A model generated the notes under the pieces. It saw only the letters and a list, made by a program, of their open reading frames with translations, had not been told where the DNA came from and ran no database searches. 11,210 bases of DNA from Candidatus Hodarchaeum mangrovi (lineage in GTDB: Archaea > Asgardarchaeota > Heimdallarchaeia > Hodarchaeales > Hodarchaeaceae). A program made the position numbers and the translations under genes. Position 1 is the stretch's first letter, and every line of letters starts with the position of its first letter. Location of the stretch: NCBI GenBank assembly GCA_016839515.1, contig JAEOUE010000309.1, positions 1 through 11,210 on the forward strand, written 5' to 3'. Below, piece by piece: positions 1 to 5,294 of the stretch.

Positions 1-2520
1 ATTGAAGAAATTTTAAAACATTTGAAAGAAACAAAGGATGATTTGGTAATACTTGACTTTTTATTGCATAAAATAGAGATTTGTTGGCGTTCAAGTAGCT
101 TAGATGAAGGATTTCAAGTTTCACAAAGGATAGAAGAAATACTTCGGAGGATAGAAAGTAATTTTGACCAAAAAAATGAAATTGATAGCAGGAAGGGAGA
201 ATATTTTTTAAAAAAAGGAGTTCTTGAATGGTATAAAGGGAATCTTGATCAATCATTAATAGATCATCAAAAGAGTCTTAGTTTCTCACAATCTTTGAAT
301 GATAAACAAGGAGTTGCAAATGTACTAAATAATCTAGGTCTATTATATCGTTCAAAAGGAAATTTAGATAAGGCAATTGAATGTCATCAAGAGAGCATCA
401 ATGTCGTTAAGAGATTGGGTAATGATCAAGTTCTCGCATCGAATTATAATAATTTAGGGGCGGCTTATCACTTGAAAGGAGACCATAAAAAAGCGTTAGA
501 ATTCTTACAGAAAAGCTTGATCCTTAAAAGGCAAATTGGTAACCAACAAGAAATCGCATTAACTCTACTTAATTTAGGGGTTAATTGTCGTATGCAAGGA
601 AGTCTGAATCAAGGATTAGAATATTATCAACAGGCTCAATTAATTTTTGAAAAATTAGGCGATAAAAAAGGTATTGCTCTTGTACTTAACAACCTAGGCG
701 ATGTATATCAGTTGAAAGGAGCCCTTAATTTGGCATTGGAATACTATCAAGAAAGTTTAACGCTTTATGAAGAACTAGGGATGAAGGAAGAAATCGCCCT
801 TTCCTATCTAAACATTGGTGAAATATACAAAATAAAAAAGAATGCTAGATGGGCTGAAAAATATTTCTTGCGAAGCTTAAAAATATATGAAGAGTCACAG
901 AACGATCTTTCAACATCTAATGTTTATTATAATCTATTTTTATTAAGTTTGGACAATAATGAGCTACATCAGTCCCAAAATTATCTACAAAAGGTTGAAG
1001 TGATCAAAAAAAGGGTTAAGAGCCGTATTGTCAATCATCAATATCTGATTGGAAAAGCCCTTTTATTCAAGACCAGCACTCGTTTTCGATCTAAGATGAA
1101 AGCTATAGAAATTCTTGAGAAAGTGGTTGAGGAAGAAGTAGCTGATTATAATTTAACGATTACCGCAATGATATCCTTATGTGATTTGTTACTATTTGAG
1201 CTTAAAACTACTGGAGAAGAAGAAATTCTTATTAAAGTCAAAGAATTGACAAATCAACTTCTTGATATAGCCAAAAAACAATCTTCCCACTCCTTACTAG
1301 CTGAGACTTATGTACTCCAATCTAAACTTACGCTTTTGGAATTAAATATTACAAAATCACAAAAATTATTAGAATCAGCATTATCTATTGCAGAAGAAAA
1401 AGGTTTAAGGAATTTAGCAGTTAAAATTTTTAATGAAAAAATAGCCCTTGAGGCACAGATAGAAAATTGGGAACATTTGCTTAAACAGAAAACGTCCTTA
1501 AATGAACGACTTGAATTAACAAGATTAGAGGACATAATGTCACGAGTAGCAGGAAAATCTTTCGAAATTACCGAAGAAGAAGTCAAACAATACGCAACAA
1601 GAGCTAAAAGCATCACAAAGGACTGGGAGGAAGTTCCGATTAGAAAATATAATTTGATCCATTTAAATCTACTTAAAGACTCCTCAAAAACTGAGAAAAA
1701 TAATTTTAGAGTTGCAATTGCCCAAATAGGAGTATCCGAGACTAATGATATTGTAAATGAGTTTTATGAAGAAAGATTAGATGGTCTTTTTAGTCTTAAG
1801 AAAGACAAAGTGGAAGTTATAAAATCTAAGCTTAGAGAATTAGTAAAAGATGCCCATTCCAAGGATGTAAAAGTCTTACTCTTTCCAGAGTTATCTATTG
1901 ATTTTAATTATCAGGAATTACTCGAAGAGGTTACCAACCTTGCTAATAAATATGATATGTATATAATTCCTGGTTCCTACCATAATCAAGACACTAAAAG
2001 AAACATTTGTTTAGTAATAGGTCCAGAAGGAGTCTTATGGCAACAAGAAAAACACATACCAGCTATTATCCATTATCATGGGAGAAGGCTCAAGGAAGGA
2101 ATTAATACTGAAGCTTTTATTAGAAATACAATTGTTTGTAGAACCGAATATGGAAATATTGCAATTACAATCTGTAGAGATTTCCTAGACATGGATTTAA
2201 GGGTTGAACTTAAAAATTCAGACCCCCCAGTGGATATGATATTTAATCCTGCCTTTACTCCTGTAACTGATGACTTTAAGGCCGCACATTTTGATGCCCG
2301 AAGATCTATCTATGCTTACTGCTTCTTTGCAAATATAGCAGAAGTTGGTGGATCATTTATCTTCACACCTGAACGAGAAAAAGTTGAACGAAAAATTCCC
2401 CCTAAGAAAGAAGATCTGATCTACAAGGAGGTAGATATTTTCAGATTACGTTCAGAGAGGAAAAAGTGGGAAATTGAACAAGGAAAAGATAAACCATTCA
2501 TTCAGAGTACACGAGTCTAG
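1..2520 (+). CDS. TPR-repeat protein with C-terminal carbon-nitrogen hydrolase (nitrilase superfamily) domain; probably 5'-partial
   Basis: Frame is open from base 1 (ATT GAA GAA ATT TTA AAA CAT TTG), so the TTG at 22 is probably not the true start. Seven 40-aa TPRs at 196-1035, a helical region, then from ~1705 FRVAIAQ...LLFPELS (E at 1888)...YIIPGS...QEKHIP (K at 2050)...ITICRDF (C at 2173)...FFANIA..GGS. Stop TAG 2518-2520. Confidence 0.9.
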   Translation: MEEILKHLKETKDDLVILDFLLHKIEICWRSSSLDEGFQVSQRIEEILRRIESNFDQKNEIDSRKGEYFLKKGVLEWYKGNLDQSLIDHQKSLSFSQSLNDKQGVANVLNNLGLLYRSKGNLDKAIECHQESINVVKRLGNDQVLASNYNNLGAAYHLKGDHKKALEFLQKSLILKRQIGNQQEIALTLLNLGVNCRMQGSLNQGLEYYQQAQLIFEKLGDKKGIALVLNNLGDVYQLKGALNLALEYYQESLTLYEELGMKEEIALSYLNIGEIYKIKKNARWAEKYFLRSLKIYEESQNDLSTSNVYYNLFLLSLDNNELHQSQNYLQKVEVIKKRVKSRIVNHQYLIGKALLFKTSTRFRSKMKAIEILEKVVEEEVADYNLTITAMISLCDLLLFELKTTGEEEILIKVKELTNQLLDIAKKQSSHSLLAETYVLQSKLTLLELNITKSQKLLESALSIAEEKGLRNLAVKIFNEKIALEAQIENWEHLLKQKTSLNERLELTRLEDIMSRVAGKSFEITEEEVKQYATRAKSITKDWEEVPIRKYNLIHLNLLKDSSKTEKNNFRVAIAQIGVSETNDIVNEFYEERLDGLFSLKKDKVEVIKSKLRELVKDAHSKDVKVLLFPELSIDFNYQELLEEVTNLANKYDMYIIPGSYHNQDTKRNICLVIGPEGVLWQQEKHIPAIIHYHGRRLKEGINTEAFIRNTIVCRTEYGNIAITICRDFLDMDLRVELKNSDPPVDMIFNPAFTPVTDDFKAAHFDARRSIYAYCFFANIAEVGGSFIFTPEREKVERKIPPKKEDLIYKEVDIFRLRSERKKWEIEQGKDKPFIQSTRV
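196..1035 (+). repeat. Intragenic array of seven 120-bp / 40-aa TPR units
   Basis: Units start at 196, 316, 436, 556, 676, 796 and 916. Core motif recurs at exact 120-nt spacing: NNLG 328, NNLG 448, LNLG 568, NNLG 688, LNIG 808, YNLF 928. DNA is diverged between units. Confidence 0.9.
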
Positions 2521-3284: not shown

Positions 3285-5294
3285 TTAAATCTCCATCGAT
3301 ACCCAGTATAGAGGATGATCTGAATCATTGCTGACAATAAATTGACTAGTTAATATATTATATCCTGATGAAACAAAGATATGATCAATACGCTCAGAAA
3401 CATCAAAATCATTACCTACCACAATAGCAGAGGAACTTAGGAACCAGCTATCATTTAAAACAGAAATAGTCAAATTATATTGCTCCGAATATGGTTCAAA
3501 ATTGAAATCTCCCATCAAGATAACATTCTGATCCACGAGGTTCTCTAGGATATTCTGCTGTTGAATAAGAGGACCTCCATTCCCAAGATGGGTAACATAA
3601 ATAGTAAAAATTCTAGCTCCAATCTTCACCTCAGCTTCAATTGTGGCAGTCTGTTCTCCTTGACTATACATATAAAATGTGCGTAAATTTTGTATCGGAA
3701 ATTTGGAGAGCAAAGCAATACCAAAGGTTCCAGCTACTGTCTTGGGGCCGTAATATGAAAAGAGATTAAGTCGATCAGCAAAGAAACGAACGGCATCAGC
3801 ATTCCCACCCGAAATTCGGGCGATATCAGACTCCTGTAAGCCAATAATATCTGCATCAATTTCATTAAGAAGTGCTAATTGACCCTCGAGATTTTTTATA
3901 CCCTGTTCTGAAGTTCCTTGCTGAATATTATAGGTCGCAATTTTTAAACTAGTCGGAATAGAGGGTATTATAGGACGAGGGGAGGTAATAAAAATCCCCG
4001 ATACCGTACTAAGAACAATAATAATAAATAAACATGAAAAGAAGACAGGATTACGACTTATTGTTTTCTCCTTAATGTAAATTCGTTCTTTTATTAATAG
4101 AAAGGAGGTTATTGCTATTACTGCACCTATGATGAAGTAAACAATCCAGAATTTATCTCGAAAGAGAGGTCCAATAATTGGGATATAATCATATGTTGTA
4201 GTAAAGATATGAGCGAATAACATCAATAAGAAAAAAATTGAAGAAGAAGTAAAAGCCATTGACAATGTTTTTAATGAAGGTTTAATGTTGAGTAATGTTC
4301 TGGATAATAGTATAAAATCAATTAATAATATTGGGGAAAGAAGCAGCATAAATAATAAAGTAATGTAGGGAACAATAAAAACATCTGGAGCATAAAACGG
4401 AAAACTTTCGAGAGACCTAGGATAAAGAAGTTGATGTACTATTAGAGAATAAGACATCACAACTATAAATAGAGCATTCCAGACCCAAATCATCCAAGGT
4501 TGAAGCTGTGCAAGTAATTGAGTTTTTAAAAGGATAAGAATACCAAACCCGCTAAGTAAAACTGCAATAAGAATCGTAATTAGCCCATAATTACTCTCAG
4601 TCCATCGTGCTATCACAGTTGGGCTTGAAATACTGAAATAAATCATATTAAAAATACTGATTAGACCGAGAGAAGTAAGAAATGTTTTAGTATGGAACAG
4701 TGGAGTATTTTGATGAGTTTCCTGTTCATAAGACTGAATGATTACCTCTTTCATTGTCAATAAGAAACCTAACAACATTACAAGGCCAATTAAAGCAAAG
4801 ATCCAGCCAATAATTTGGAAACCTCCAAGTGTGGATAGATCACTCCCTGAACCAAGTGTTCGAAACAAGACAGAAAAAGCAACAGCGAGTACCAATCCTA
4901 AACCCAGAGAAAAACTTGTCGATTCCTCTTCAAAATCTTGCTTAAACCGAAAATATACTGGTAAAAATATTAAAAAACAACCAACACCCAACCCAGATAC
5001 AATTAACTTCAAATGAAGGGTTAAAAATGGTTCAAAAATTCTCATGATAATAACTCCTCCACCTGATAACATCAAAATCATTTTGTTTGCAGTATCTCTA
5101 AATAATATTAGAAGAATTGGCGAGAAAAGGAATAAAACAAATAAGACATTCTCATCAAGTGATAATGAGAGTAATTCTATTGCATAAATAGTCTCTATAA
5201 AATCCACCACTAATTGCAAAAAAAATAACATGAGTATGCTTAATAAAATTAGTTCAGAATACAGACGAGATATGAACCTTGAAATTGTTACCAT
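3285..5294 (-). CDS. Polytopic membrane protein (~13 TM) with C-terminal EEP (endonuclease/exonuclease/phosphatase) domain; Cwh43/PGAP2IP-like
   Basis: About 13 hydrophobic segments in aa 1-440. EEP motifs TYNI, GLQE488, TH569L, GD596FN, RIDHIF, SD659H660 in aa ~450-669. The block ESDIARISGGNAD...RLNLFSYYGPKT..GTFGIALLSKFPI matches the Cwh43 pattern as I recall it. Confidence 0.88.
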   Translation of the reverse strand: MVTISRFISRLYSELILLSILMLFFLQLVVDFIETIYAIELLSLSLDENVLFVLFLFSPILLILFRDTANKMILMLSGGGVIIMRIFEPFLTLHLKLIVSGLGVGCFLIFLPVYFRFKQDFEEESTSFSLGLGLVLAVAFSVLFRTLGSGSDLSTLGGFQIIGWIFALIGLVMLLGFLLTMKEVIIQSYEQETHQNTPLFHTKTFLTSLGLISIFNMIYFSISSPTVIARWTESNYGLITILIAVLLSGFGILILLKTQLLAQLQPWMIWVWNALFIVVMSYSLIVHQLLYPRSLESFPFYAPDVFIVPYITLLFMLLLSPILLIDFILLSRTLLNIKPSLKTLSMAFTSSSIFFLLMLFAHIFTTTYDYIPIIGPLFRDKFWIVYFIIGAVIAITSFLLIKERIYIKEKTISRNPVFFSCLFIIIVLSTVSGIFITSPRPIIPSIPTSLKIATYNIQQGTSEQGIKNLEGQLALLNEIDADIIGLQESDIARISGGNADAVRFFADRLNLFSYYGPKTVAGTFGIALLSKFPIQNLRTFYMYSQGEQTATIEAEVKIGARIFTIYVTHLGNGGPLIQQQNILENLVDQNVILMGDFNFEPYSEQYNLTISVLNDSWFLSSSAIVVGNDFDVSERIDHIFVSSGYNILTSQFIVSNDSDHPLYWVSMEI

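Follow-up and report, generated by a model that had tools for sequence, protein, structure and literature searches.

What is the function of a protein in which a long array of helical repeats is joined to an intact nitrilase-type active site? This question is raised by the gene that opens the 11,210-nucleotide stretch of Candidatus Hodarchaeum mangrovi DNA analysed here (contig JAEOUE010000309.1; the whole stretch is called the window hereafter), which an initial annotation, made from the letters alone, had described as a TPR solenoid fused to a nitrilase-superfamily domain. The best explanation of our results is that the gene is a member of a modular, mainly Asgard family, in which a binding scaffold without an NTPase is followed by a C-terminal effector slot that holds a nitrilase-superfamily amidase. 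A more specific reading, in which the scaffold is a sensor and the nitrilase an effector switched on by assembly, with a probable role in conflict or immunity, is one that we regard as evenly poised between right and wrong. The features of the gene that are needed to follow this argument are:

1..2520 (+): 5'-truncated coding sequence of 839 codons and a TAG stop; the full protein has about 904 residues
1..1635 (+): alpha-solenoid scaffold (TPRs in Pfam, helices in AlphaFold2, Foldseek)
within 1..1635 (+): canonical TPRs at about residues 70-470 of the window translation, followed by more helical pairs and a low-confidence linker before the module
988..1641 (+): post-TPR helical region, the hallmark of this scaffold family, whose homologues end in a nitrilase, a TIR, a KaiC-like ATPase or nothing
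1636..2517 (+): conserved 294-residue nitrilase-superfamily module (Pfam, PADLOC, AlphaFold2, Foldseek and alignment)

We examined the bounds of the gene and the reality of the fusion. Frame 1 of the forward strand is open from base 1 to the TAG at 2518-2520 and gives 839 residues, and the gene lacks its 5' end because base 1 of the window is also the first base of its contig (C316). The upstream sequence that the initial annotation had called for was found in P0002, a full-length and near-identical protein of 904 aa (99% identity, 5 mismatches over the 839 residues of the window), which extends the N-terminus by 65 residues relative to the window translation. DNA contigs from three other studies also reach 114-197 bases upstream of base 1. 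A start at the TTG of base 22, from which the residues had first been numbered, was ruled out by the contig edge, by the 65 extra residues of P0002 and by these upstream-extending contigs; the gene continues beyond the edge of its contig. A tblastn search of the window's own genome with residues 1-80 of P0002 returned nothing, so the 5' end is absent from that assembly. The junction between scaffold and module, at about base 1636, was spanned by single contigs of three independent DNA studies (X3, bases 1063-2520; X6, 1104-2520; X4, 1377-2247), and the same TPR and nitrilase architecture was present in 75 of the 175 module-bearing proteins that we fetched. An assembly artefact, which had been named as a way in which the fusion might fail, is ruled out by the spanning contigs and by the recurrence of the architecture in relatives, and the join of helical repeats to a C-N hydrolase domain was borne out by Pfam, by the AlphaFold2 model and by those contigs alike.

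The catalytic residues of the module were located as follows:

1888..1890 (+): catalytic Glu, in FPELS; E630 counted from base 1, E623 counted from base 22, E695 of P0002
2050..2052 (+): catalytic Lys, in EKH; K684 from base 1, K677 from base 22
2095..2097 (+): second Glu of the tetrad, in KEGI; E699 from base 1; invariant and aligned with a Glu of Nit2 (7elf)
2173..2175 (+): catalytic Cys, in ICRD; C725 from base 1, C718 from base 22; aligned with C1116 of DRT1

The three residues proposed earlier (E623, K677 and C718, numbered from base 22) lie exactly where they had been placed, and the triad is joined by a fourth catalytic residue, E699, which we take to be the second Glu of the nitrilase tetrad. 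By alignment, the catalytic E-K-E-C tetrad is intact in the window protein. Pfam matched CN_hydrolase (PF00795) to residues 609-818 with 26.6 bits (E 4.5e-6), the curated threshold of this family being 23.2. Modelled alone by AlphaFold2, the module shows the alpha-beta-beta-alpha sandwich of the superfamily; the model reached a mean predicted local distance difference test (pLDDT) of 81.9 and a predicted template modelling score (pTM) of 0.86, and a Foldseek search with it recovered nitrilase-superfamily structures only: 213 matches had E <= 0.001, identity was 12-18% among the matches listed, and the best was mouse Nit2 (2w1v_A; E 4.4e-14, TM 0.66/0.70). In a profile search of the PDB, the catalytic motifs of Nit2 (7elf) were aligned with FPE, K-H and I-C-x-D of the module.

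The last 294 residues were compared with 15 paralogues and relatives taken from genome DNA, which were 56-87% identical to the window copy and in which E85, K139, E154 and C180 (module numbering) were invariant. Over 153 full modules the tetrad was near-invariant (first Glu in 152, Lys in 153, second Glu in 153 and Cys in 152), and 77 of the 294 positions were conserved at 97% or more. The conserved module includes an N-terminal strand, a C-terminal helix and a tail beyond the Pfam match; hence the hydrolase domain of the initial annotation stands, with its length corrected from about 270 to 294 residues. A TPR-nitrilase homologue of 886 aa (P0278) has a module without the stretch that holds the catalytic Cys and the first of the two interface helices described below; either the copy is degenerate or the assembly has a deletion here.

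The scaffold was estimated at first to contain over 550 residues of helical repeats, and we found about 600 residues of TPR/helical solenoid in the full protein. Pfam matches in this part comprised TPR_12 (3.3e-41), TPR_1, TPR_10, TPR_2 and TPR_MalT (residues 187-468). The AlphaFold2 model of P0002 (alignment of 37 sequences; pLDDT 84.1, pTM 0.65) contained 31 helices up to residue 599, which is residue 534 of the window translation, then a low-confidence linker and an alpha/beta domain. In a Foldseek search the helical part was similar to the peptide-binding TPR superhelices of LGN/Pins and to the TPRs of OGT and SPY. Mean pairwise identity among 26 orthologues was 54% in the TPR region, 70% in the module and 38% in the first 130 residues. 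No P-loop NTPase was present in the Pfam and NCBIfam matches of the 839 residues, nor in the Pfam lists of the full-length homologues.

We then used only the post-TPR helical region (residues 395-612 of P0002) as a query and recovered 51 scaffold homologues, which differ in what follows the scaffold. A nitrilase was found in 29 of the 51, a C-terminal TIR_2 domain in four (P0282, P0290-P0292) and a KaiC-like ATPase in one (P0272), while 11 end no more than 12 residues from the junction (residues 603-609 of P0002) and five carry other tails of 77-155 residues; 23 of the 51 were compared with P0002 by BLAST, with P0283 left out. The window's genome itself holds at least four complete scaffold-only paralogues. 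By sequence comparison, the putative effector slot at the C-terminus is interchangeable on homologous TPR scaffolds at the same junction, and the layout of a sensor with an effector that had been suggested for this protein is backed by the nitrilase, TIR, KaiC-like and empty ends. In P0289-P0295 an extra, unassigned domain of about 135-155 aa lies past the junction, followed by the TIR in P0290-P0292; by eye it may resemble roadblock or longin.

The module was likewise found behind several unrelated front ends. A search limited to proteins of 461-1,469 residues gave 810 matches, and the module was 63-70% identical where the remaining parts differ. Among 1.84 billion cluster representatives scanned, 48 matched with E <= 1e-30; those that cover most of the module share 40-65% identity, and the next matches drop sharply to 33% or less. 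Judged by these identities, the modules form a tight family with a sharp edge. Of 270 gathered proteins, 175 carry the module, and in 147 of them the front end has at least 150 residues. The architectures were:

75 proteins: TPR front end
60 proteins: long helical front end, 1,275-1,450 aa
6 proteins: alpha/beta-hydrolase front end
2 proteins: FIST front end
3 proteins: beta-helix/NosD front end, with or without PKD and TSP3
15 further proteins: AAA_16, module, TPR and alpha/beta-hydrolase, with the module internal (residues ~130-430)

In all three beta-helix forms one transmembrane helix lies between the ectodomain and the module and ends about 25-42 residues before the module. Two of them have a complete N-terminus with an additional hydrophobic segment (P0149 and P0150), and the third (P0147) begins inside the ectodomain. 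Because this lone helix separates the ectodomain from the module, the latter would be cytoplasmic, and the beta-helix proteins look like single-pass receptors with a cytoplasmic nitrilase. Single-pass receptors of such kind usually signal through induced proximity. In the 15 AAA_16-type proteins (P0035-P0055 type, ~1,090 aa) the AAA_16 match falls into two stretches, and the module comes after its first ~100 residues; the NTPase may have the nitrilase inserted in it or standing next to it. One of these proteins is labelled Zixibacteria by its source. Stand-alone modules of about 290-300 aa also exist, and the two whose ends are complete are Ala/Arg/Gly-rich in sequence.

More distant relatives (second tier, 26-33% identity) comprised archaeal HEAT-repeat proteins that have a TrmB match and a nitrilase region at their end, proteins with an N-terminal nitrilase and an nSTAND3 NTPase (with PUA in some), and a nitrilase combined with a class II aldolase. 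The nearest clusters in the ESM Atlas were bacterial 'hypothetical' proteins of ~300-340 aa (scores 0.95-0.96), which serve as leads only. A FastTree phylogeny of the modules (160 rows, with four second-tier outgroups) grouped them according to architecture, with 14 changes of label against a shuffled mean of 70, and the number and direction of module transfers are not readable from it because 61 of its 156 inner branches are unsupported.

The distribution of the module was examined in the window's genome and across the phylum. The window's genome (G000; 91% complete, 6% contamination, 348 contigs) contains seven copies, three on TPR scaffolds (C316, C32 and C44) and four long helical (C180, C324, C343 and C134). 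Contig ends cut three of them inside the module (C343, C134 and C44), and the window copy (C316) in the 5' part of the scaffold. Such breaks at module genes are expected if paralogues of ~60% identity and strain variants disrupt assembly, and copy counts from draft genomes are therefore lower bounds. Of 18 further genomes of the genus, 11 carried the module, with 1-4 copies each, and it was found in none of 12 genomes, themselves incomplete, from other families of the class. Across the phylum it was present in 90 of 301 sampled genomes (89 of an even draw of 300, and the window's genome), with 1-7 copies. These belong to four of 30 families (f1, 13/20; f11, 29/76; f14, 32/68; f17, 15/19), and in the 117 incomplete genomes of the remaining 26 families it was not found, which is not the same as absent. 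Close homologues are labelled by their sources as Hodarchaeales, Thorarchaeota, Promethearchaeota and Hermodarchaeota. The gene behaves as part of an accessory, expanded family that is patchy and multi-copy, and the combination of TPR and CN_hydrolase, whose taxonomic range had been left as a question, is recurrent and mainly found in Asgard archaea. Long helical nitrilase genes (~1,280 aa) also occur in tandem at ~4-kb spacing in genomes from other families of the phylum, four at G208:C1:157752-170593 and three at G142:C33:148257-157065.

Two further features of the module bear on how it may be activated:

2185..2310 (+): two helices with almost no variation, LDMDLRVELKN and DFKAAHFDARRSI; predicted interface of the two-fold dimer
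2497..2514 (+): conserved C-terminal tail FIQSTR, at the extreme end of the protein

The module is predicted to form a two-fold dimer. Its homodimer prediction scored 0.54 against 0.12 for the best of three controls, a mark that was attained by 20 of 30 proteins whose solved structure is a pair of one chain, and by one of 23 solved as a single chain, though the score may reflect likeness to known structures because nitrilase dimers have already been solved. The runs agreed in at least 84% of contacts, with a partner pLDDT of at least 86. The symmetric interface consisted of residues 184-194 and 212-225 of the module, and no other stretches of it are as strongly conserved. Dimers of this superfamily usually pair through the same two helices. 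In 138 of 153 modules the protein ends in FIQST(R/K) or has at most two residues after it; in the model this tail has low confidence and lies outside the confident dimer contacts. Its role may be read by analogy with the tail of DRT1, which is described below.

In order to place the module among known systems, we compared it with defence-associated as well as metabolic nitrilases. The PADLOC models CARF_nitrilase (PDLC01989; 48.7 bits, 1e-13; model positions 212-392 of 457) and DRT RTasNitrilase (43.3 bits, 5.8e-12) both scored higher on the module than Pfam CN_hydrolase, with just 26.6 bits, the E-values of PADLOC and Pfam referring to libraries of unequal size. The matched positions of the CARF_nitrilase model would correspond to its nitrilase part. 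A profile of the C-terminal half of the module, searched against the PDB, matched only DRT1 (9yfd_A; E 6e-4, the next match having 0.3), in a weak alignment that runs from the catalytic Cys to near the C-terminus and so covers part of the module only.

DRT1 consists of a reverse transcriptase, alpha-helical repeats and a C-terminal nitrilase that acts as the effector, according to the available parts of its description (PMC13275509). The same parts describe a nitrilase core that forms a tetramer required for activity, conserved C-terminal residues that are domain-swapped over the active site of the neighbour, C1116 as the catalytic Cys and a substrate that is given there as unknown (PMC13275509). 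In the portion available for UG5, a reverse transcriptase-nitrilase, the nitrilase Cys is necessary for defence (PMC13436386), and the two sources together, as far as they were accessible, report that the catalytic nitrilase Cys is required for defence in DRT1/UG5 systems (PMC13275509, PMC13436386). DRT1 (UG1) and UG5/DRT11 (class 3 UG/Abi) share with the window protein a C-terminal nitrilase that follows alpha-helical repeats. DRT1 further shares a conserved tail at the extreme C-terminus and an oligomerising nitrilase core, which is solved in DRT1 and predicted for the window module. The window protein, in contrast, has neither a reverse transcriptase (by Pfam, including the lists of its homologues) nor the DNA-adduct logic of these systems, and it combines a canonical TPR solenoid as front end with an Asgard archaeal host.

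STAND/NLR-like sensors (Avs, nSTAND3 and AAA_16/MalT-type) resemble the window family in a sensor region of MalT-like TPR repeats, in a swappable effector slot, which in the window scaffold takes a nitrilase, a TIR or an ATPase, in relatives of the module that are fused to nSTAND3 and AAA_16, and in a patchy, multi-copy distribution. They differ in that the window protein has no P-loop NTPase, which is found only in its distinct AAA_16-bearing relatives, and in that its effector is C-terminal to the repeats whereas theirs is N-terminal. The CARF-nitrilase, an ancillary protein of type III CRISPR-Cas, provides the best-scoring family model for the window module (PDLC01989), but no CARF domain was matched in the window protein, the remainder of which is TPR. 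OGT and SPY also have a long TPR superhelix of similar fold followed by a catalytic domain; that domain is of unrelated fold, and OGT and SPY are single-copy housekeeping genes while the window family is accessory and modular. Finally, the metabolic nitrilases (Nit2, beta-ureidopropionase, D-carbamoylase and AmiF) have in common with the module its fold, its tetrad and the predicted dimer surface. They are just 12-18% identical to it, though, and the window module has an extra N-terminal strand and hairpin, a C-terminal helix and the FIQSTR tail, and is nearly always terminal in large multidomain proteins. The initial annotation knew of no characterised protein with this architecture, and our full-text literature search, judged at the abstract level, likewise found no description of a TPR-nitrilase protein.

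The reading of an effector activated by assembly rests on an invariant module that is predicted to oligomerise and is carried behind binding or receptor front ends, including single-pass receptors, and on the TIR-capable slot, the scaffold-only paralogues, the patchy multi-copy distribution and the kinship with effector nitrilases. In such a mechanism the solenoid would bind a protein or peptide ligand, and clustering of scaffolds driven by that ligand would bring the nitrilase modules together. The modules would then pair as in the predicted two-fold dimer, and would probably assemble further into the higher oligomer needed for activity; oligomers are required for activity in the nitrilase superfamily. 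The FIQSTR tail may help to complete or gate the active site of the neighbour, in the way of the DRT1 tail, and the E-K-E-C centre would hydrolyse a C-N bond of a highly conserved substrate. The most likely role is probably in conflict or immunity, in the form of an abortive-infection-like or dormancy response.

Several of our results weigh against this reading. The very strong conservation of the module would equally fit a housekeeping enzyme, and the TPR region shows only moderate divergence (54% identity). No hypervariable sensor of the arms-race type is apparent. Pfam and NCBIfam revealed no NTPase or other known switch domain in the protein. At a pTM of 0.65, the contacts between scaffold and module in the P0002 model are unreliable and autoinhibition cannot be judged from them. 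A 272-nt contig from an RNA library spans bases 1475-1743 with five differences and is no proof that this gene is transcribed. Regarding the genomic context, the proposed enrichment in defence islands gave no signal: PADLOC, which covers Asgard defence poorly, gave no specific match to a defence system in a small sample of 82 proteins encoded next to 14 copies (that of the window, those of two paralogues, and 11 from 10 loci in relatives). What it did match among these neighbours was generic in every case: ABC ATPases, an oxidoreductase, a methyltransferase, a WD40 protein and a Lon domain. None of the neighbours examined was a CRISPR-Cas gene. Moreover, 76 pattern matches in viral contigs were obtained and none was confirmed as a relative.

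The strongest alternative is that the protein is an amidase that recruits its substrates, with the solenoid delivering proteins to the nitrilase for deamidation or amide cleavage. The target could be an N-terminal Asn or Gln, which is what Nta1 acts on, an amide in a side chain, or a bond similar to an isopeptide, and in a layout similar to that of OGT and SPY each front end would pick its own target, for a role in proteostasis or signalling. This view accounts for the resemblance of the TPR part to the LGN/Pins peptide-binding superhelices and to the OGT/SPY TPRs, for a single strongly conserved catalytic module on many protein-binding front ends, for TPRs that are moderately conserved, as for a fixed partner, and for neighbours without defence context. 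A slot that also holds a TIR, a KaiC-like ATPase or nothing, however, better suits output modules, and neither the patchy, multi-copy distribution nor the receptor forms, which put the module straight behind a transmembrane helix without a cytoplasmic binding domain, would be expected of such an enzyme. In addition, the models of defence-associated nitrilases outscore the general Pfam model, and Nta1 was not among the 13 PDB sequences with E <= 1 or the Foldseek matches listed, the coverage of Nta1 in these libraries not being established. We consider a protein amidase rather unlikely, though deserving of more weight than the alternatives that follow.

Slightly behind it in our estimate, and also improbable, stands a signalling output that is not immune, in which clustered receptors would cause the module to make or destroy a small-molecule signal, for environmental or cell-cell sensing and not as a toxic effector. 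The single-pass receptors with large beta-helix, PKD or TSP3 ectodomains that carry the module, the fusion of the module to FIST, a putative sensory domain, and the lack of defence context among neighbours are all in line with this possibility, as are two paralogues of the window's genome that adjoin related secreted beta-propeller-repeat proteins and a small HTH-like protein. Against it, no conserved adjacent partner able to read such a signal was found, and the TIR swap together with the DRT1, CARF and nSTAND3 relatives points to conflict systems. A constitutive metabolic amidase, whose TPRs would be merely a scaffold for oligomerisation or localisation, is very unlikely: its catalytic centre is intact, its best PDB matches overall, in sequence as in fold, are Nit2, beta-ureidopropionase, D-carbamoylase and formamidase, and neighbouring genes are often metabolic, but the module is only 12-18% identical to metabolic enzymes, has no conserved pathway neighbour, is present seven times in a single genome on front ends that are unrelated, went undetected in 26 of the 30 families sampled in the phylum, and sits in a slot that can take a TIR instead.

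Returning to the assembly-activated effector, its boldest form is a family of NTPase-free receptors in Asgard archaea and some bacteria, which would comprise TPR and long helical solenoids in the cytoplasm together with the single-pass membrane receptors that have beta-helix ectodomains. In all of them a shared terminal nitrilase, activated when a ligand causes clustering, would be the death or output domain, interchangeable with TIR, and would act by C-N hydrolysis on a universal metabolite or macromolecule. We hold this form only tentatively, and with clearly less confidence than the general reading. If true, C-N hydrolysis by a nitrilase would be a reaction not yet known in immunity, and the family would be an archaeal counterpart of the induced-proximity signalling of eukaryotic innate immunity. 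Nitrilase domains have been recognised as effectors against phages in bacteria just recently (DRT1, UG5). What is new here is an effector-type nitrilase on a scaffold that has neither an NTPase nor a reverse transcriptase: the related module is detached from reverse transcriptase, CARF and NTPase, is found with six or more types of sensor-like front end, membrane receptors among them, and can be replaced by TIR. The family belongs mainly to Asgard archaea, which among prokaryotes are the nearest kin of eukaryotes. Being soluble, small and highly conserved, the module would offer a tractable handle on the substrate of effector nitrilases and on switching by induced proximity. If the family is not immune, it would represent a large uncharacterised class of regulated amidases in Asgard archaea.

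Downstream of the nitrilase gene, the window contains:

convergent glyoxalase-like gene
membrane protein with an endonuclease/exonuclease/phosphatase domain
ABC transporter pair
APH-like kinase
GNAT acetyltransferase
CPBP protease
methyltransferase

The neighbours are metabolic and transport genes (by Pfam) and differ at every locus, both around two paralogues in the window's genome and around the 11 copies from 10 loci of relatives. No conserved operon partner was found at the window, at the paralogues on C180, C32 and C44 or at the 10 loci in relatives; only C180 and C44 share upstream genes. The homologues of two window neighbours were on other contigs or not found in five congeners, and this missing synteny says little because the congeners are divergent (46-48% identity for a neighbour). 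The gene looks like a one-gene unit, complete in itself, whose surroundings change and bear no mark of a defence island. In one congener (G011) the module of a TPR-nitrilase gene (C2:290673-293400) is 87% identical to the window copy, while the best homologue of the window's membrane protein is 46% identical and lies on another contig (C7:150532-152514); this difference in identity may be due to strong constraint, to a nitrilase gene that was transferred recently or to a neighbour that is a paralogue.

The shared upstream genes of C180 (L009:4658-9291, reverse strand) and C44 (L011:1970-7210, forward strand) form the same trio in front of different nitrilase paralogues, long helical in the former and TPR in the latter. 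One of the three is an HTH-like protein of ~160 aa with a weak PCYCGC match, 60% identical between the loci, and the other two are large 'DGG(F/Y)...W' repeat proteins, 26% and 34% identical, the smaller of which is hydrophobic at both termini. The trio may be a duplicated block or may have a functional link to a surface system. Directly 3' of the TPR-nitrilase paralogue on C32 (L010:637-2268, reverse strand) we found a gene for a 544-aa protein in which the C-terminal domain of Lon protease (2.3e-16) is joined to a small GTPase of the Arf family (2.8e-42), and a second Ras-like open reading frame, which is degenerate, lies near it (L010:7716-8246). Finally, the membrane protein of the window (3285-5294, reverse strand) is a polytopic protein of 669 aa with a C-terminal endonuclease/exonuclease/phosphatase domain, and its best Pfam match is the PGAP2IP C-terminal nuclease-like family (8.1e-21). 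The PGAP2IP-type architecture is known mainly from eukaryotes.

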